This document shows positions 1,487 to 58,787 of a DNA stretch of 64,000 nucleotides, piece by piece (the first letter of the stretch is position 1; each line of letters starts with the position of its first letter). Position numbers and translations under genes: made by a program. Under the pieces are notes generated by a model. That model searched no databases, was not told where the DNA came from, and worked only from the letters and a program-made list of their open reading frames with translations. The stretch lies in assembly GCA_011052815.1 (NCBI GenBank), contig DRIG01000095.1, forward strand, positions 8,943-72,942, written 5' to 3'. The DNA is from a candidate division WOR-3 bacterium. Lineage in GTDB: Bacteria; Hydrothermota; Tepidihabitantia; SM23-42.

Positions 1487-4297
1487 TCATCGCCAATCCC
1501 CGATTACCACAAACGGTGCCCAGAAAAACGGGCGATCGAGAAACTCCTGTTTCTTCAACCACCGCTGGGCATTGCACAAAGCATTCGTCTTATCTGTATC
1601 TTTCAGATTTTGATAAAATCTCATCATCAGAAGGACAGTGGAAAGATCACTGACCTTCCAGAGCGAAGCGACCACGGATGAAGAGCCGGCATATATAAAG
1701 GCGCGGCTTAAACCGGTGAGTTCATCGCCCATCAAGCCGACTTCGGAAAAACCCCGTAATTGACCTGTTTCACATGCCGACAATGTAACAAGGTATGCAT
1801 CGATTTCCAGATTGAAGATTTCCCGTACCTTCAGATAACCGTCGTTCTTTTCATCTTTGGAGAGGATAATACGCGATTCAAGAGCGGAATCACCCGGTGC
1901 AAGTTTTCCATGGGTCGCGAAATGGATGATGTCAAAATCCTTGAGAAATCGCTTTGCATTGGTTTCTGATGGTTGTGGTAATGAACTGTCGGCGTCGGAA
2001 AAGATTCTTAAATCAGGCAGCGCCTTCGTGGCGAGAATGGAATCCGTCTCCTCTTTTGTCCCCGGCAGAGAGAGATCAAACCACTCCGGGTGTTCGGAAA
2101 AATCCGCCTTGGCGAAAATAACCGCTTTCGCTTTCCGGCTTTTGTTCTTTCTCCGGGCGATTTCATATACAGAAGCCGACGGAGCGTAGAATATGTCGTA
2201 TCTGTCAATCAAGAGCGACAAAGGGTCTTTTCCAATGACGATTGCGGCGAACGGAAGATGATGCAAAACACCGTAGGGGATAATGCATAACCTCTCTTTA
2301 TTCTGGATTTCCGTCATCAACGGATTCAAGAGAAATGTATAGAACCATTCTGATAAAACCAGGAGTTCGTCATCAGTATAATTAACCCTGCGTTTGATTA
2401 TCTTACGGTACTTATCAACCTTCTCGTAGATCCGTACCGCCGGAACGTCAATCTTTTTGACACTCAGGCTCGTACTCGTAACGACAAAAACATAAGCGTT
2501 CTTCACACCGATGAAGTACTCAACAATCGCGGTGGCGTCATCCAGTATTGACTGAAGTCGTTTTATTTCAATCGGTTTTACTGATTTCAGAGTAGTGTAC
2601 TCCGGATACACCCGCTCCAGCTCATCTAAGACATTATTGTGTTCCATTATCACATCACGCTGTTCAAGGGTTCCCGCTAAAAATTCAATCTTTTTTTCGA
2701 GCATCTGTTCTTTCTTTATCAACGAAACAACCTCGGAATCCAGGCCTTCTTTACCGGTAAGTTCTGCACCGGCAAGCAGATCAAGAAAAGCCCGCGCCTT
2801 TGCCCGTTCTGCATAGTTGAAAGCCTCCTCTGCTTTTCCTTGCTGATAGTAGATGTTGATAAGCTCTTCGTAGACCCTTATCTTGTTATCAAGATATGCC
2901 GAGCGGAAATCCTGACCCGTGATCTTACCCCGTAAATCTTCAATGATCGCAACCGCGTCGGTCAAAGATTCTATCGCTTCATCAGGTACGCCGCTGCGGT
3001 GCTGGGCAAAACCAAGATTGGCAAGAAGAGACGCCTTCCAGTCTTCCCGTTTAATATTTTCGATCACCCTGTATGCTCTCTTGTAATCAGCCACGGCTTT
3101 TTTATAATCACCCTGGAGCACAAAGAGATTACCCAGATTGCTTAATACCTTGGCTGCACCCAGCCTGTCGTCAATATCTTGATAGAGTTTCAATGCCTTT
3201 TTATAATTCCCCTCTGCGGTTTTATATTCGCCTTTCTTCTCATATAAGACTCCAAGATTATTATAATAATGGGCTTCGCCCTGTTTATCCTTTATTAAAT
3301 CATTTGCCAGATCATAATAGTATAAAGAAGAATCATAGTACGACTCATCTTCTGTCGCCAGCAGGGTATAAACAAAACCGATATTCTGGAAGGTCTCTCT
3401 CTTCCATGTGATATTCTTCATCTTTTCGAAGATATCACGGGCACGAAACAGAAATGTCAGGGCACTGTGATACTTTCCCATAGCAATGTAGAGTAAGGCG
3501 ATATTATGGAGAAGCTCTCCTTCACCGAGGAGGAATTCTTTCCCGGCTTTAATGCTGTCGGCAAGATTCAACGCACACAGAAAATTTCTGTATGCCGCAT
3601 CGTATTCACCCATCCTCCGCTGAACATTTCCGATCTCACGATATGCCTCATAAGCGCTTTTGTAATAACGGTGTTTTAAAGAGAGTGAACAGGAAGCGGA
3701 AAAATACTCCAGGGCGCTGTCACTGACCGCCTGCTGGACGAAAAGAGAACCGAGGAAATAACATCCGTCGATAATGCCTTTTTTATAATCAATGGATTTT
3801 GATCTCTCGACAGCCCGAAGCAGATAATCGCTTGCATCTTTGTATCGTCGCTTTGCCAAAAACAACCTTCCGAGCATCATCAGAACATTGCTCTCGTCTA
3901 TCCGGTCTGAAATCGTCTTTTCCTTCACCCTGCCGATGGTCTTCAATGCATCATTAAAATACTTCTGCGCCCGGGATAACTCGCCCTGGTAAAAAGCGAG
4001 TGAGCCAAAATTCAAATAAATTTTTGCTTCACCGCTTAAGTATTTTTCTTTCTTAAAGATCTTCAGGGCTTCGGTATAATAATCGTCTGCAGCAGCCGGG
4101 TCACCGAAGCATAGCGCGATATTCCCGAGTCCTTTCAAACAAAGACCTCTGTCAATACCCTGGACAGTCTTCAACAGTTCAATATAGATGGTCTCAGCCT
4201 GAGCAAAATTTTCATTATAGAACAGGGAATCAGCAATGTCCAGCAATGAACCAACAGGTTCTTCTTTGGTAATCAGAAAGAATAACAAGAAGATCAT
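1487..4297 (-). CDS. TPR-repeat protein with a C-terminal CHAT (caspase-like) protease domain and a hydrophobic N-terminus.
   Basis: Many TPR-like repeats, then the CHAT His/Cys dyad signatures HFATHG and SACETG near the C-terminus. Its start overlaps the stop of the upstream gene (ATGA). Confidence 0.8.
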   Translation of the reverse strand: MIFLLFFLITKEEPVGSLLDIADSLFYNENFAQAETIYIELLKTVQGIDRGLCLKGLGNIALCFGDPAAADDYYTEALKIFKKEKYLSGEAKIYLNFGSLAFYQGELSRAQKYFNDALKTIGRVKEKTISDRIDESNVLMMLGRLFLAKRRYKDASDYLLRAVERSKSIDYKKGIIDGCYFLGSLFVQQAVSDSALEYFSASCSLSLKHRYYKSAYEAYREIGNVQRRMGEYDAAYRNFLCALNLADSIKAGKEFLLGEGELLHNIALLYIAMGKYHSALTFLFRARDIFEKMKNITWKRETFQNIGFVYTLLATEDESYYDSSLYYYDLANDLIKDKQGEAHYYNNLGVLYEKKGEYKTAEGNYKKALKLYQDIDDRLGAAKVLSNLGNLFVLQGDYKKAVADYKRAYRVIENIKREDWKASLLANLGFAQHRSGVPDEAIESLTDAVAIIEDLRGKITGQDFRSAYLDNKIRVYEELINIYYQQGKAEEAFNYAERAKARAFLDLLAGAELTGKEGLDSEVVSLIKKEQMLEKKIEFLAGTLEQRDVIMEHNNVLDELERVYPEYTTLKSVKPIEIKRLQSILDDATAIVEYFIGVKNAYVFVVTSTSLSVKKIDVPAVRIYEKVDKYRKIIKRRVNYTDDELLVLSEWFYTFLLNPLMTEIQNKERLCIIPYGVLHHLPFAAIVIGKDPLSLLIDRYDIFYAPSASVYEIARRKNKSRKAKAVIFAKADFSEHPEWFDLSLPGTKEETDSILATKALPDLRIFSDADSSLPQPSETNAKRFLKDFDIIHFATHGKLAPGDSALESRIILSKDEKNDGYLKVREIFNLEIDAYLVTLSACETGQLRGFSEVGLMGDELTGLSRAFIYAGSSSVVASLWKVSDLSTVLLMMRFYQNLKDTDKTNALCNAQRWLKKQEFLDRPFFWAPFVVIGDWR

Positions 4298-5250
4298 TTT
4301 CCCCCGTTGAGCAAGGCTTCGTACTGCTCAAGATATCTGTTTCCAAGCCCGGTAAGTCCGTATCTGTTATAGAGAATTGAAAGTGAACGATAAAGAGTCG
4401 GATTATCAGGGTCCATCTCCAGAAGGGTTCTATACTCATTTATCGCATCACCTATCAATCCTTTTTCTTCATATATTTTGGCACTTAAAAAGTGGACGGT
4501 AAAAGGATCAGGACTTTGAGATTTGATATTGTTCAAAATATCATGAAGCTCGTTGATGACATCAGAAGATAAAACCTTGATGTGCCGTTCAGCCGTGCTG
4601 ACTGTGTCATTATCCTTTATTGCCGCAATCTTCAAGAAATAAAATCCCGGTTTAAGTTCGGCTTCATCCTCAGGATAGGTCAGAATCGTATCAATAGTCG
4701 TTCTGCACCAGACAACATCACCCATCTTCATAAGTTGAACAATGTATGATTGAACATCTGGAAATTCCGACCAGACAATATCCGGTCTTCCCGTAAGTAA
4801 TGTACTGTTCCCTGGTTTATAAACGACGATATTCAAAGTATCTTCTTCTCCCCTTACCAGAACCTTTAAACCGCTCTTTTCACCCTCGGCGTTGAATACA
4901 AATAAAGGCGATAATATCGATTTCGTCTCCTGGCCCAAGCCGGTTTCATCGGGAGCGCCCCGAACAACTGTATCTGCAGGTGAAACCTCAATTTTTATAC
5001 TCTCCCCTTTGGTGAGGGAAAGAAGTTTACCGCTGTTGCAGTAAAGAATCGTGACCTGACCGTCGGTATCTGTTCTCAAACTGTCACCGGCGAAAAGCCC
5101 GTCTTCCAGGTGGGCGGGAATAAACTCTTTTTCACCGGCACGGTGAATCTTGACATCCCCTTTGACTGCCGTTATTACAGCAACCGCTTTAATCCCTTCC
5201 TCAACCTCATTCTGCAGGTATAATATCAAGCAGAACCAGAAAACCAGCAT
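4294..5250 (-). CDS. Membrane-anchored FecR-like domain protein with C-terminal TPR; first gene of the CHAT operon.
   Basis: N-terminal hydrophobic segment. A FecR-type beta domain pattern (VKGDVKI...AGDSLRTDTDGQVTILYCNSGKLLSL), then TPR-like helices. It is translationally coupled to the CHAT gene. Confidence 0.55.
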   Translation of the reverse strand: MLVFWFCLILYLQNEVEEGIKAVAVITAVKGDVKIHRAGEKEFIPAHLEDGLFAGDSLRTDTDGQVTILYCNSGKLLSLTKGESIKIEVSPADTVVRGAPDETGLGQETKSILSPLFVFNAEGEKSGLKVLVRGEEDTLNIVVYKPGNSTLLTGRPDIVWSEFPDVQSYIVQLMKMGDVVWCRTTIDTILTYPEDEAELKPGFYFLKIAAIKDNDTVSTAERHIKVLSSDVINELHDILNNIKSQSPDPFTVHFLSAKIYEEKGLIGDAINEYRTLLEMDPDNPTLYRSLSILYNRYGLTGLGNRYLEQYEALLNGGK

Positions 5251-5675: not shown

Positions 5676-5749
5676 GCCCCGCTAGCTCAATCTGGCAGAG
5701 CAACGGATTCTTAATCCGTGGGTTGCAGGTTCAAGTCCTGCGCGGGGTA
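5676..5749 (+). tRNA. tRNA-Lys (anticodon CTT)
   Basis: Acceptor GCCCCGC/GCGGGGT, anticodon loop TTCTTAA, T-loop GGTTCAAGTCC. Confidence 0.85.
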
Positions 5750-5759
5750 TATAGAATGT

Positions 5760-5833
5760 GGTGAGTGTAGCTCAACTGGCAGAGCATTGGACTGTGGTTC
5801 CAATGGTTGGGGGTTCAAGTCCCCTCACTCACC
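5760..5833 (+). tRNA. tRNA-His (anticodon GTG) with the extra 5' G-1.
   Basis: G-1 followed by GTGAGTG/CACTCAC acceptor stem and a C discriminator. Anticodon loop CTGTGGT. Confidence 0.85.
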
Positions 5834-12979: not shown

Positions 12980-14604
12980 TAAAATGGGCTGAGCCTCACT
13001 ATCTTTCTTTATTGCTGTTAATCCCGCTTTTCATCATCGGAATCATCATTTATATGATGCGTAAAAAGAAAACCTTATCAAAATTCGCCGATGACCATAT
13101 TATACCGAGAATCACCGATACATTAAATAAAAAACTTCAGGTTTCAAAATATATTTTATTGATTCTGGCATTTGCTTTCCTGGTCATAAGCCTGGCACGG
13201 CCTAAATGGGGGGAAAAATTACAAATCTACAAAGGAAAGGGAATCGACGTCGTCATCGCACTTGATGCGTCAAAGAGTATGCTTGCTCAGGACATCAAAC
13301 CGGACAGATTGACCAGGGCGAAAACCGAAATCATCTCCCTGCTCGACAATCTCACCACAGACCGTGTCGGGATAACCGCATTTGCGGGTGAATGTTATAT
13401 TATGTGTCCACTAACGACAGACATTGAAGCTGCAAAACTGTTTTTAAATGTAATCTCTCCCGAAGTGATACCTAAACCGGGTACTGATCTCGAAAAGGCG
13501 ATTTCAGTTTCATGCTCGCTCTTCAACCCTGACGAAGAAACGCATAAAGCACTGATCCTCTTTACCGACGGTGACAATCTGGTGGGTGATCCGATGTCTG
13601 CCGTTGAAAAAATAAAAGATCAGGGAGTAAGACTTTTTACAATCGGTGTCGGAACAATCGAAGGCTCACCGGTTCCGGAAATAGATGAACAGGGTAATTT
13701 CAGTTCTTACAAGAAAGACAAGGATGATAAAATCGTTATGTCCCGATTGGCGGAAAGGCTTCTTATAATTCTTGCAAAGGCAACCGACGGCAGGTATTTC
13801 AGAACTGAGGGAGTCTATATAGATAGATTGGTCGGTGAACTTGACAAAATAAAGAAGAAGGAGATCGGCGGGGGTGAGTATGTGGAATATGAGGAACGTT
13901 ATCAATATTTCCTTACCATCGCATTCATCTTTCTCTTTCTCAATATCTTTCTCACGGATCGCAGAGGCAGGTGGTTTGAAAGGCTGTTCTTACTTTTTCT
14001 GTTTTCTTGCGGTTTGAATTTTGCATATGCCGATGTGGGAGCGAATATGCGGAAAGGAAATCACCTCTGTCGTAAAGGCAAATATGAAGATGCATTACAA
14101 CAATATCAAAAGGCACTGGTTCAGGAACCGGATAATCCGAAGATCCATTATAATATGGCGCGGGCATTGTATAAAACCGAAAAGTATGATGAAGCAATCA
14201 GTGAATTCGAATTAGGACTGCTTATGAAAGATGAAAAGTTCAAAGCAAACAGCTTCTATAATATCGGCAACTGCCAGTTCAGAAAGGGACAGCTCGATGC
14301 CGCAATCAACGCCTACAAAACAGCCCTCCTTTTAAATCCAGACGATATGGAAGCTAAACAGAACCTCGAATTCTGCATCAAATTGAAAGAATCCCTCAAG
14401 AACCAGCCGCAGAGTGATTCTCTCCAGCAGCAGCAACAACAACGGCAACAAAATCAACCGCAACCTCAGCCGCAGAAAAAGAAAGGTGAAATCAATAAAG
14501 AAGAAGCTGAACGGATTCTACAGGCCCTAAAAGATAAAGAAAAAGAGAATCTGAAAAAGTCAAAACAGAAAAGAAAGAAAGAAAATGTGGCGAAAGATTG
14601 GTAG
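12976..14604 (+). CDS. batB: BatB-like vWA + TPR protein. Start revised to the GTG at 12976, overlapping the batA stop.
   Basis: The N-terminus VIKWAEPHYL is paralogous to the BatA N-terminus. MIDAS LDASKSM, C-terminal TPRs, and a Q/PQ-rich tail. AGGAGG lies 6 nt before the GTG. Confidence 0.75.
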   Translation: MIKWAEPHYLSLLLLIPLFIIGIIIYMMRKKKTLSKFADDHIIPRITDTLNKKLQVSKYILLILAFAFLVISLARPKWGEKLQIYKGKGIDVVIALDASKSMLAQDIKPDRLTRAKTEIISLLDNLTTDRVGITAFAGECYIMCPLTTDIEAAKLFLNVISPEVIPKPGTDLEKAISVSCSLFNPDEETHKALILFTDGDNLVGDPMSAVEKIKDQGVRLFTIGVGTIEGSPVPEIDEQGNFSSYKKDKDDKIVMSRLAERLLIILAKATDGRYFRTEGVYIDRLVGELDKIKKKEIGGGEYVEYEERYQYFLTIAFIFLFLNIFLTDRRGRWFERLFLLFLFSCGLNFAYADVGANMRKGNHLCRKGKYEDALQQYQKALVQEPDNPKIHYNMARALYKTEKYDEAISEFELGLLMKDEKFKANSFYNIGNCQFRKGQLDAAINAYKTALLLNPDDMEAKQNLEFCIKLKESLKNQPQSDSLQQQQQQRQQNQPQPQPQKKKGEINKEEAERILQALKDKEKENLKKSKQKRKKENVAKDW

Positions 14605-26893: not shown

Positions 26894-27823
26894 TCAAAAA
26901 GAACGGTAAACCGACGTTCCGTCGATGAATACCGGAATGTAACGTTTATCCCTGAATTGGTAGTAAAAAGAAACAAAGAGATTGATGAACTTGTTCAAAT
27001 CTTCATCTTTTTCCACAAAATCATCCTGAAGATAAATTAAAGTGGCGGCGATTATTATTTTATTCGTGAAGGCTTCAGCAGAATCCAGTTTCCCTTCTTC
27101 ACTCAATTTGATAAGTTTGTTGATACTCTCAAGGACGATCTGAAACTGGTCTTTATATTTAGTGGAAAGCGGTTTTTTGACCACAGCTTTACTTACGCGC
27201 ATAATTGCATCTGTTATTGCACTCTCGAAAAACTTATACTCTCGGTTAATCACGGCTGCATCCTCTGAAGAAACATCATACGGCTGCCAATCGACATTAA
27301 AAACCCGGTTTGTTCCATATAAACCGTAAACACTTGCCAGAAAGGCGACGTATTGATTCAAACCTTCAGACAACTCAGGTTCCAGAAACCCTTGGAGCCA
27401 TTTTAGAATCAAGGCGATGCAGACACGCATCTTGACCTTATCTATTGAAGTCTGTTTGTCTCTTTTTAACTTCTGAAAGATGACCGTGAGTTCTGTCTTA
27501 TCAAGCACTACATTCTTCCCTAATTTTTTTTCAAAATACCCGGTGAGATTTCTTAATCTGAAGTATCTGGTTTTATGGTCACATTCACTGTAAACATGAT
27601 TGACAAAATCCTGCATAAGTTTTTTATCGATTTTTATCACTTTTTGTGATCGGGGTGAACTGGAAAGAAACTTAAGATAAGCGACAAAATTTTCGATGTC
27701 ACGCTGCGTTATGTGTTGTTCAATAAGAAATCTGGTTTTTTCATATAGGATATCGATTATTCTTTCTGCGGAAATTTCTTTCAGCGTATATTTGAGGATC
27801 CTTGCTAAATTTCTGAGATGCAT
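26894..27823 (-). CDS. Hypothetical, mostly alpha-helical protein.
   Basis: ORF with ATG start. No recognisable motif. Confidence 0.45.
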   Translation of the reverse strand: MHLRNLARILKYTLKEISAERIIDILYEKTRFLIEQHITQRDIENFVAYLKFLSSSPRSQKVIKIDKKLMQDFVNHVYSECDHKTRYFRLRNLTGYFEKKLGKNVVLDKTELTVIFQKLKRDKQTSIDKVKMRVCIALILKWLQGFLEPELSEGLNQYVAFLASVYGLYGTNRVFNVDWQPYDVSSEDAAVINREYKFFESAITDAIMRVSKAVVKKPLSTKYKDQFQIVLESINKLIKLSEEGKLDSAEAFTNKIIIAATLIYLQDDFVEKDEDLNKFINLFVSFYYQFRDKRYIPVFIDGTSVYRSF

Positions 27824-27874: not shown

Positions 27875-27971
27875 GGGGTCAGATCTCGAAACTTGACAAC
27901 TTATCGATTCTTTTCATACAGGGAGCCGAAACGAAATTCGGGGAATTTGTCAAGTTTCGAGATCTGACCCC
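27875..27971. repeat. Hairpin element, copy 1: 25-bp perfect inverted arms (GGGGTCAGATCTCGAAACTTGACAA / TTGTCAAGTTTCGAGATCTGACCCC) around a 47-nt loop.
   Basis: The arms are identical to those of copy 2 at 33190-33324. The loop edges are alignable with copy 2. Confidence 0.75.
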
Positions 27972-27984
27972 ATGTGCCTTCTAA

Positions 27985-29331
27985 CTACCGGACTTTAACG
28001 ATCTTCTGTTTAACCCCATCATCCGTCTCGATAAAGTAAATACCCGGCTCAATTAAACTCGGATTCACCTCCCGCCCGGAAATATCGAACACCCTGCATC
28101 TCTTTCCTCGCGGTAATCGCAACGGTCCGCTGATGACAGTAGCCCCGTGGAAAAATGTCGGCTTCTTTGAAATCTCTTCTTCGACCCCCACATCTGGCTC
28201 AGTCTTGATGAGCCACATATCACCAAGGCCTGCGCCATAACTATAGGTTATTCCTGCGATGACATACCCGCTGTCCGCAGTCGGTGCCACGGAATAACCA
28301 TAGTCACCACTGCTACCGCCAATGGTCATAGACCAGATCAAATCTCCCTGGGTGTCGGTCTTGATAAGCCACACATCACCACTGCCTGCACCGAAACTCT
28401 CGGTACTACCGCCAATAATGTAACCACCGTCGGTAGCCAGTATTATTGAATAACCATAATCATCACTACCACCACCAAAGATCTTGGACCAGACCTGATT
28501 TCCATTACCATCGGTCTTAAGCAACCAGGCGTTCTTTCCGGAGTAAAGAGAAGTGCGAACCCCGGTGATGATGTACCCGCCGTCTGAAGTCTGTTGAACT
28601 GATCTACCTTCATCAAAGAAACTGAGACCAAAGGTCTTGGTCCAAAATGCATTTCCCTGGCCATCAGTACTGATGAGCCATAAATCCCCATTGCCTGCAC
28701 CATAACTGTGGGTTTCGCCGGTGATGACATACCCACCGCTGGTGGTCTGTATTACTGAATAACCACTCTCACTATTGTCACCGCCGAAAGTTCTATGCCA
28801 AAGCATATTTCCCTGTGCATCGGTCTTGATGAGCCAGAGATCAGAAGAACTACTGTAACTTTCAGTTGTTCCTGTAATGATATACCCGCCGTCCGCAGTC
28901 TGTGCCACAGAATAGCCATAGTCATAGCCGTAGGCGCCAAAGGTCTTGGACCAGATCAAATTCCCCTGTGCATCGGTCTTGATGAGCCAGAGATCACTTT
29001 CATCCACACTATAACTGCGGGTTCCACCGGTGATAACATATCCGCTGTCAGAGGTCTGTATCACTGAATAAGCATAGTCACTGCTGTCACCGCCGAATGT
29101 TCTGGACCAAACCTGATTTCCCTGTGCGTCGGTCTTGAGCAACCAGACGTCAAAAGCACCAGCGCCGTAACTGCTGGTATATCCGGCAATAATATATCCG
29201 CCGTCAGCGGTCAAGGCAACCGAACAGGCGCAGTCATTACTGCTTCCTCCAAAGGGTCTGGTCCAGGCTGTGTCCGGTGCCTGGGCAGATACGAACACCG
29301 CCAGTATCAACAACCCTATTATGTAACGCAT
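27985..29331 (-). CDS. Secreted beta-propeller-type repeat protein (about 8 x 48-aa repeats) with a T9SS C-terminal domain.
   Basis: Signal peptide. Repeats follow the consensus DGGYIITG.T.SYG.G..D.WLIKTD.QGN..WS.TFGG. Ends ...EPGIYFIETDDGVKQKIVKVR. Confidence 0.6.
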   Translation of the reverse strand: MRYIIGLLILAVFVSAQAPDTAWTRPFGGSSNDCACSVALTADGGYIIAGYTSSYGAGAFDVWLLKTDAQGNQVWSRTFGGDSSDYAYSVIQTSDSGYVITGGTRSYSVDESDLWLIKTDAQGNLIWSKTFGAYGYDYGYSVAQTADGGYIITGTTESYSSSSDLWLIKTDAQGNMLWHRTFGGDNSESGYSVIQTTSGGYVITGETHSYGAGNGDLWLISTDGQGNAFWTKTFGLSFFDEGRSVQQTSDGGYIITGVRTSLYSGKNAWLLKTDGNGNQVWSKIFGGGSDDYGYSIILATDGGYIIGGSTESFGAGSGDVWLIKTDTQGDLIWSMTIGGSSGDYGYSVAPTADSGYVIAGITYSYGAGLGDMWLIKTEPDVGVEEEISKKPTFFHGATVISGPLRLPRGKRCRVFDISGREVNPSLIEPGIYFIETDDGVKQKIVKVR

Positions 29332-33067: not shown

Positions 33068-33152
33068 AAATCAACGATTGTCAGGGAAATACTTACTTCC
33101 AGAGGAGAAAGCAGCTACCCTTCTTAAATTTTTCTGAAGAACAATCTTATAG

Positions 33153-33180
33153 ATTATAAAGAAGCAGCAGTGATAGTCAA
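33153..33180 (-). promoter_or_regulatory. Sigma-70-like promoter for the STAND-SARP gene.
   Basis: On the minus strand: TTGACT (rc of 33175-33180), N16, TATAAT (rc of 33153-33158). It is 10 bp from hairpin element copy 2. Confidence 0.5.
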
Positions 33181-33189
33181 GGGCTTATA

Positions 33190-33324
33190 GGGGTCAGATC
33201 TCGAAACTTGACAAATTATCACTTCTCATTATAATAACTTCGTGGTCAAACCATTGAAAACAGGATTCCGATGTTTTTCACCACAACAAGATGAGGGAGT
33301 TGTCAAGTTTCGAGATCTGACCCC
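33190..33324. repeat. Hairpin element, copy 2: the same 25-bp perfect inverted arms around an 85-nt loop. Ends 2 nt before tRNA-Arg.
   Basis: Exact match to the copy 1 arms. It contains the tRNA-Arg promoter. Confidence 0.75.
33208..33235 (+). promoter_or_regulatory. Consensus promoter of tRNA-Arg(TCG), embedded in hairpin element copy 2.
   Basis: TTGACA 33208-33213 lies inside the left arm. After a 16-nt spacer, TATAAT 33230-33235 lies in the loop. The tRNA starts about 85 nt downstream. Confidence 0.55.
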
Positions 33325-33326
33325 AT

Positions 33327-33400
33327 GCGCCTGTAGCTCAATCGGATAGAGCGACGGACTTCGAATCCGTAGGCTGGGGGTTCAATTCCCTCCAGGCGCG
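33327..33400 (+). tRNA. tRNA-Arg (anticodon TCG)
   Basis: Acceptor GCGCCTG/CAGGCGC, anticodon loop CTTCGAA, T-loop GGTTCAATTCC. Confidence 0.85.
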
Positions 33401-33417
33401 TTTCTGCAACTCAATTT

Positions 33418-58498: not shown

Positions 58499-58787
58499 CG
58501 GTCGTGCACTCCCTTCGCCAGTCTCTCCAGGAACAGAAAGGCGAAGAGCTCAGACCAGGTTTCCTTATGACCGGCCCATTTCTACTTACCGCTGCTTCTT
58601 TCCAGACCTGACGGGGTTTGTAGCTGGTACCATCATAAGACCCAATCCTCAACACTCTTCAACTCCTCACTGTCGCCCCTGAAAAGTACTGTCTCAAATG
58701 GAGCCTTCAGTCCCGCATAAGCGGATTTCGGGTCATCCGCCAAACGGCGGATTCAAGGCACCGCTAACTCCCCACTTAGCACGACCG
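58499..58787 (-). ncRNA. ffs: Signal recognition particle RNA, long (Bacillus-type) form with an Alu domain.
   Basis: The reverse complement begins GGUCGUGCUAAGUGGGGAGUUAGCGGUGCC (5' Alu motif). It contains the domain IV motif GUCAGGUCUGGAAAGAAGCAGC and ends GUGCACGACC, which pairs with the 5' end. It sits immediately upstream of dnaX, as in many bacteria. No ORF in the region. Confidence 0.75.

Follow-up and report, generated by a model that had tools for sequence, protein, structure and literature searches.

Why should the promoter of a tRNA gene lie inside a long, perfect palindrome? The question is raised by the tRNA-Arg gene with anticodon TCG (33327..33400, plus strand; ARAGORN; Rfam RF00005, 74.8 bits) in a 64-kb stretch of DNA from a candidate division WOR-3 bacterium, referred to below as the window. 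Directly in front of the gene lies a 135-bp hairpin, copy 2 (33190..33324, +), in which the left arm GGGGTCAGATCTCGAAACTTGACAA (33190..33214, +) is matched by a right arm that is its perfect complement (33300..33324, −). The arms are 25 nt each and 100% complementary, with 85 nt between them, and only 2 nt separate the right arm from the tRNA. A promoter scan placed the −35 hexamer TTGACA within the left arm (33208..33213, +) and, after a 16-nt spacer, the −10 hexamer TATAAT in the loop (33230..33235, +), a 12/12 match pointing at tRNA-Arg. Six nucleotides past the −10 follows the sequence GTG GTC AAA CCA TTG AAA (33242..33259, +), encoding (M)VKPLK, a probable transposase-start remnant discussed below. 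The predicted transcription start near 33242 coincides with its GTG, giving a predicted 85-nt pre-tRNA 5′ leader (33242..33326, +) that comprises the right loop half, the right arm and the dinucleotide AT. A first-pass annotation of this DNA had described the perfect promoter aimed at the tRNA and had placed the right arm within the leader; both statements were borne out, as were the other sequence features that it listed. Searches against Rfam 15 returned the tRNA as the only match for the region; the hairpin had no match at gathering or E-value thresholds, with sub-threshold scores to generic long-hairpin miRNA models. Elsewhere in the window, Rfam identified a large-type bacterial SRP RNA (58502-58784, −; RF01854, 131 bits).

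We examined how this tRNA is likely to be transcribed. Since everything between 26894 and 33067 is coded on the minus strand, tRNA-Arg needs its own promoter within 33068-33326, the 259 bp from the STAND gene to the tRNA, where the copy 2 promoter is the sole plus-strand site scoring at least 9/12. The window contains seven perfect TTGACA-N16-18-TATAAT sites (5394, 8953, 25935, 33208, 39901, 51215 and 63593) as compared with 0.01 expected, all seven with a 16-nt spacer, in contexts that include the other tRNA operon (~175 nt upstream), a radical-SAM gene and a TetR-efflux operon. The genome thus uses this signal, and the copy 2 site is very unlikely to be accidental. Judged by its consensus, it most likely drives tRNA-Arg: RNA polymerase would start near 33242 and produce the leader joined to the tRNA, from which RNase P would take the leader off. 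In the predicted fold of 33242-33401, the tRNA cloverleaf is undisturbed by the leader. Transcription from this promoter would leave out the left arm. The 25-bp RNA stem could then not form, and for the tRNA-Arg transcript the stem would be a DNA-level feature.

A transcript that began further upstream would behave differently. It would carry both arms and fold into a very stable hairpin (RNA fold z-scores were about −8 to −10, with copy 2 at −57 kcal/mol and z = −8), so that the tRNA might be released by cutting of the RNA stem, for example by RNase III, or be poorly expressed; REP and MITE hairpins are known as RNA processing and stability elements (PMC3733652). Such read-through is nevertheless improbable, given the lack of a further plus-strand site of at least 9/12 in 33068-33326, the wholly opposite-strand coding upstream of that interval and the standing of perfect promoters with 16-nt spacers as the standard signal of this genome, the other tRNA operon included.

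On the far side of copy 2, the scan found a divergent promoter, TTGACT-16-TATAAT (33180-33153, −; TTGACT 33180-33175, TATAAT 33158-33153), with a score of 11/12. The gene downstream of it encodes a 1131-aa AAA_16/TPR_MalT/BTAD protein, referred to here as STAND/BTAD. Two perfect 25-nt arms bracketing one promoter, with a second promoter 27 bp from the tRNA −35, could be read as an operator, that is, as a palindrome whose arms are both bound by a dimeric or looping regulator controlling tRNA-Arg and STAND together. The first-pass annotation had suggested as much in proposing that a single factor coordinates the two; the divergent promoter that it had noted is present, but its coordination with the tRNA through the palindrome does not hold up. 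No part of the STAND promoter falls within the element, and the centres of the arms are 110 bp apart. A second hairpin with the same arms, copy 1, occupies an unrelated intergenic site in the window, and, as described below, the same termini recur in at least 120 contigs from very different hosts and also lie beside Y1 transposase genes.

Comparison with relatives weighed further against an operator. One relative (L019) carries the same tRNA by the same efflux operon, preceded ~100 nt upstream by a 12/12 promoter, and the element is absent. Because this promoter lacks it, the palindrome is an acquired element and not a requirement of tRNA-Arg promoters, and we consider the operator explanation highly improbable. 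Hairpins of this kind should be annotated as repeat elements, not as operators or attenuators. In the L019 promoter (13540-13600, TTGACA-17-TATAAT), the −35 falls within a loop formed by an unrelated inverted repeat of 12 nt (ATGTTTATGTTT / AAACATAAACA). The element is likewise absent from a second relative (L031), in which no consensus promoter was found within 400 nt of tRNA-Arg(TCG); a short GC hairpin, CAAGGGGGTGTCCCCCTTG (1176-1200), lies immediately 5′ of that gene. Among the nearest STAND orthologues (65-56% identity), which lack the element and are non-syntenic with the tRNA, there was no clean empty site of a close relative. Several WOR-3 MAG 'chromosomes' (L003, L005, L022, L025 and L030; CP0706xx/CP0707xx/CP0708xx) contain regular 100-N scaffold gaps, one of which, in L030, falls exactly upstream of tRNA-Arg(TCG). 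We rejected masking as the origin of this run, as such runs recur throughout those MAGs and represent scaffold gaps; the contig may have broken at a repeat.

To what kind of element, then, does the palindrome belong? Within the window, the arm 25-mer has four exact matches (0.00 expected from shuffles), accounted for by two copies of the element: copy 2 and the 97-bp copy 1 (27875..27971, +), which carries identical arms at 27875-27899 and 27947-27971 with 47 nt between them. Beyond the window, loci of relatives, obtained via a neighbouring AcrB-like gene, contained hairpins whose arms were related, for example GGGGTCAAATCTCGACATTGGACAT and GGGGTCAAATCTTGACTATTGACAA. From the common 15-nt terminus, GGGGTCA[A/G]ATCT[C/T]GA, we derived a paired-arm search pattern, GGGGTCARATCTYGA...TCRAGATYTGACCCC, which matched four loci in the AcrB-neighbour relatives (WOR-3/Stahlbacteria) and at least 120 contigs in metagenomes, the metagenome scan covering elements of 80-110 bp only. 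A phage origin is not indicated, because the pattern was without a match in viral contigs. The exact 25-mer GGGGTCAGATCTCGAAACTTGACAA had no hits in 185,579 species-representative genomes, and the source genome therefore lies outside that set; a literature search by sequence returned unrelated primers only.

Among the matches listed, we distinguished 130 elements, mostly of 80-110 bp, in hosts with a GC content of 0.40-0.73 (median 0.65; window, 0.44). The 15-nt termini are conserved across this whole range. All four window arms and all family members begin with GGGGTCAG, fitting the motif GGGGWSAS. Subfamilies share identical long arms (22-45 nt) around variable apical loops, and some form tandem arm arrays; multi-copy loci include L150, with two copies, and L145, with several. 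Three arm clusters (L040 6926-7047, L084 3921-4153 and L103 7282-7485) consist of three to five arms in tandem, closed by one or two opposite arms, an arrangement reminiscent of BIME/REP arrays. Across WOR-3 lineages, the distribution of the element is patchy. In Stahlbacteria genomes, an element recurs at the same position (L013 6416-6516, L028 6420-6520, L014 6451-6542), directly upstream of the −35-like sequence CTTGACAA and ~3.5 kb upstream of the AcrB-like efflux-pump gene. Its inner arms vary between genomes while each pair remains perfectly complementary, so both arms changed together. No element was found at the equivalent site of the window, and degenerate arm-like matches occur near 6553 in L010 and near 6342 in L018.

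The ends of these elements bear on how they move. Among the matches listed, a direct flank repeat of at least 3 bp was seen in 0 of 127 elements, the flanks often continue the inverted repeat outward, and the base preceding GGGG is T at 49% of the ends. Without such direct repeats, ordinary cut-and-paste MITEs and Tn3-type ends can be ruled out. A classic MITE mobilised by a DDE transposase, be it of the Correia/NEMIS type, an IS630 derivative or a Tn3-derived TIME, would otherwise be in keeping with the terminal inverted repeats, the length of 80-135 bp and the promoter inside, and Tn3-family ends, too, typically terminate in GGGG. Yet the gene associated with the arms encodes a Y1/HUH transposase, and no DDE transposase adjoins them in any locus examined. 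Together with the missing duplications, this leaves a DDE origin with next to no likelihood. Further identities were tried and discarded. A Tn3-type end or TIME, prompted by the GGGG terminus, was rejected in the absence of a 5-bp duplication. A hammerhead-like reading, based on CUGAUG in some of the left flanks and CGAAAC within the arm, failed, as the window copies are without the CUGANGA core and the element is symmetric. Integron attC sites, tRNA-targeted att sites and CRISPR repeats were dismissed for wrong end motifs and the lack of an integrase; moreover, the element sits at the 5′ and not the 3′ end of the tRNA, and its hairpins are complete and not arrayed.

In five loci, the arms flank a ~290-aa Y1/HUH REP-associated tyrosine transposase with a C-terminal helix-turn-helix (HTH). 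At L145, two left arms and one right arm surround a 290-aa ORF (3724-4596) that matches the NCBIfam equivalog REP_Tyr_transpos with 86 bits (cut-off 80) and carries Pfam Y1_Tnp followed by a C-terminal HTH_23/28; its stop codon lies within the right arm (ATC AAG ATC TGA CCCC). Homologues adjoining arms were detected by tblastn in L142, L109 and L098, and in Ca. Bipolaricaulis sibiricus (L157) the transposase gene lies between GGGGTCAGATCTTGTTC... (left) and ...AAGACCTGACCCC (right). The motifs seen are NHYH/NHVH and YV[VM]LNP. The transposase clade is very large, with at least 8000 candidates at E ≤ 1e-25 and, among the matches listed, many named RayT. At L064, by comparison, arms ~800 bp apart surround a 185-aa ORF without a Pfam match. 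No Y1 transposase gene was found in the 64-kb window, nor a transposase gene in ~540 kb of WOR-3-group loci; we assume that the cognate transposase resides elsewhere in this genome.

The full units have a compact layout: the left arm supplies a −35, the subsequent −10 is separated by 6-7 nt from a leaderless start codon, and the stop lies in the right arm. In the L145 unit, the −35 TTGATA within the left arm is followed after 17 nt by TAGACT and after another 6 nt by ATG, and the L157 unit reads TTGTTC-17-TACACT-7-ATG. Miniature derivatives of such units are preserved. An L145 mini-element (5678-5780) can be aligned, base for base, to the transposase unit of the same locus at the 5′ end and also at the 3′ end, and is therefore an internal-deletion derivative; its 5′ end runs arm, TTGACA-17-TATACT, CC-ATAGCTCG-CCTCTG, where the transposase unit has CC-ATGGCCCGCCCTCTA. 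In a host of 46% GC, L054 6040-6170 comprises a degenerate arm, an ATG and 17 N-terminal transposase codons, the remnant MDRPLSMKFPGAVYHVTS* being joined to a TGACC..CCCC right end, and is clearly an internally deleted TIRtron, that is, a transposon of the kind in which long terminal inverted repeats (TIRs) with the common motif GGGGWSAS enclose a RAYT-like gene (PMC3733652).

Copy 2 fits this series. Its GTG-VKPLK parallels the transposase N-terminus MARPLR, the consensus over 117 TIRYT proteins being M-A-R-P-L-R-I-E-Y/F. A start codon followed by x[RK]P[LI][RK] occurred in one of the 136 elements among the matches listed, as compared with 0.14 per 136 with shuffled loops. The copy 2 loop shares only ~46% DNA identity with transposase 5′ ends, the homology being based on geometry and the 6-residue peptide pattern. 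As copy 2 keeps the full-unit geometry together with VKPLK, it would therefore represent an internally deleted unit, and its promoter is most simply explained as the transposase's own. We thus consider it probable that copies 1 and 2 are miniature TIRtron derivatives, each a dimer of TIRs, and that the transposase promoter of copy 2 most likely drives tRNA-Arg, which would account for the odd placement of a promoter in a palindrome: a miniature element retained the transposase promoter, which would now serve the tRNA. In the mechanism that we propose, a TIRtron, with its TIRYT gene (TnpA-Y1 subclass 2.1, C-terminal HTH) between long GGGGWSAS terminal inverted repeats, would be reduced by internal deletion to two repeats and a short loop, a REPIN-like hairpin. 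Such hairpins would then disperse without duplicating the target site, the transposase presumably acting on them in single-stranded form.

Probable promoter donation to tRNA genes is found once more in the family. Among the matches listed, a promoter of at least 10/12 is present in 4 of 136 elements (copy 2, L124, L145 and L098), L124 and L145 being the same locus at 98.7% identity. In this shared locus, which belongs to a high-GC lineage, the element (11/12) stops 48 nt in front of tRNA-Ser(CGA) and tRNA-Arg(GCG), which lie on the same strand. The scan showed no other promoter-like site upstream of these tRNAs; by eye, L145 has a weak alternative below the scan threshold, TTGCGC-17-TACCAT, directly upstream of tRNA-Ser. 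Counting independent cases among the matches listed, two of three promoter-bearing elements lie just upstream of tRNA genes, as compared with 0 of ~131 others (Fisher estimate about 3e-4). The REPIN/RAYT field is still seeking host benefits, and promoter donation to tRNA genes, with two independent cases, is a candidate. A broader generalization, that mini TIRYT elements serve as portable promoter cassettes recurrently domesticated for tRNA genes in unrelated phyla, is tempting, yet we regard it as rather unlikely. If true, it would be a concrete host benefit helping to explain the long-term persistence of RAYT/REPIN-like elements.

Among known systems, the nearest are the TIR repeats of TIRtrons/TIRYT (Di Nocera et al. 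2013, BMC Genomics 14:522; Group 1 RAYTs of Bertels). In some genomes, moderately abundant TIR repeat families have been described as dimers or clusters (PMC3733652). Quentin et al. (2018, BMC Genomics 19:475, PMC6006769) assigned TIRYT to TnpA-Y1 subclass 2.1, marked by NHVH or NH[YF]H, Y[IV]xLNP and a C-terminal HTH, and also give the GGGGWSAS TIR motif. The present family has the main traits of TIRtrons in common: GGGGTCAG arm starts fitting that motif, arms around a ~290-aa Y1/HUH transposase with NH[YV]H, Y[IV]xLNP and a C-terminal HTH_23/28, and TIRs that overlap the gene ends and are also dispersed as dimers and clusters. It differs in coming from candidate division WOR-3 and metagenomes, in its longer conserved terminus (15 nt), in miniatures that are internal-deletion derivatives able to keep the transposase promoter and first codons, and in having one copy placed where it would serve as a tRNA promoter. 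Quentin et al. (PMC6006769) reported no REP-like repeats near subclass 2.1 genes, whereas the repeats here do adjoin genes of that type. TIRYT/TIRtron repeat families thereby extend to candidate division WOR-3, a new phylum for them, and the GGGGTCAGATCT-type family proves far wider in metagenomes than the few genomes of the first TIR-repeat description. This is a probable case of promoter capture in a known TIRYT/TIRtron-derived, REPIN-like family and not a new kind of system; the re-use of a transposase promoter for a tRNA gene is, as read from the sequences, most likely a modest addition to it.

Likeness to REPINs and RAYTs (Bertels and Rainey 2011, PLoS Genet 7:e1002132) extends to conserved inverted ends around a variable spacer, the long hairpin, an extragenic location, the lack of target-site duplication, tandem clusters and the link to a single-copy-type Y1 transposase. 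The differences are equally plain. A classical REP unit is a 20-40-nt imperfect palindrome with a GT[AG]G tag, and the window arms are of another build: the ends are not short palindromes individually, and GGGGTCAGATCTCGAAACTTGACAA has no GTAG tag, its only internal palindrome being the 6-bp AGATCT, which is lost in GGGGTCAAATCT variants. In addition, the transposase here bears an HTH and belongs to Group 1/subclass 2.1, not Group 2/3, and the family is common to several phyla. Reviews of REPINs give termination and mRNA stability as functions, and the word 'promoter' was absent from the REPIN papers so searched.

Correia/NEMIS elements can supply promoters. As short inverted-repeat elements beside genes that give RNA hairpins, these Neisseria sequences (named in PMC3733652) resemble the family described here. 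They are set apart by a TA duplication, presumed DDE mobilisation and outward promoters at their ends, whereas the promoter here points inward from the left end, is apparently the transposase's own and comes without a duplication.

Copy 1 remains to be placed. It occupies an intergenic site flanked by two minus-strand ORFs, one of 448 aa whose stop is at 27985 and one of 309 aa that starts at 27823 and has its own weak promoter at 27862-27835. Copy 1 retains the −35 arm, as the first-pass annotation had observed; at the −10 position it reads CATACA (16-nt spacer) or ATACAG (17-nt spacer), and no plus-strand promoter of at least 9/12 was found in it by the scan. The idea that it is a decayed duplicate of the tRNA promoter and leader was not sustained, as both copies belong to a dispersed, transposase-associated family that spans many genomes and phyla. 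Within this population, copy 1 is a shorter member that has lost the −10 and the start remnant. Four identical arms beside diverged loops (the left parts are ~57% identical) suggest constraint or recent mobilisation. The predicted hairpin of copy 1 has ~−52 kcal/mol and, if co-transcribed with its minus-strand neighbours, copy 1 would yield a full RNA hairpin. No U-tract follows it, and any part in mRNA stability or processing is conjecture.

The right flanks of the two copies also invite comparison. In copy 1, the terminal CCCC is followed by ATGTGCCT and in copy 2 by ATGCGCCT, giving ATG[T/C]GCCT after both (27972-27979 and 33325-33332), identical at 7 of 8 positions. The contexts of this shared flank differ, being the 5′ end of the tRNA at copy 2 and a run into a gene's stop codon at copy 1. 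With a chance estimate of ~4e-4 per comparison, and with the resemblance of the left loop parts, this agreement could mean that a local duplication of copy 2, including the first bases of its tRNA flank, gave rise to copy 1, rather than an independent transposition. The likeness, however, ends at 8 nt, where copy 1 continues into the stop codon and 3′ end of the gene; the left flanks are unrelated, and 5.3 kb with three genes lie between the copies. Y1/HUH enzymes such as those of the IS200/IS605 family typically insert beside a short specific motif, and a motif-adjacent insertion would account for the shared flank as well. We therefore judge a local duplication to be quite improbable and retain the reading of copy 1 as another member of the dispersed family; the flank itself may be a target motif of the Y1 transposase, a longer element end or a co-duplicated flank. 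The adjacent 448-aa protein (27985-29331, −), for which there was no Pfam match, is built of about ten tandem repeats of ~40 aa (..GGYIITG..D.WL.KTD..GN..W..TFGG). In relatives, genes adjoining the STAND orthologues carry Por_Secre_tail domains.
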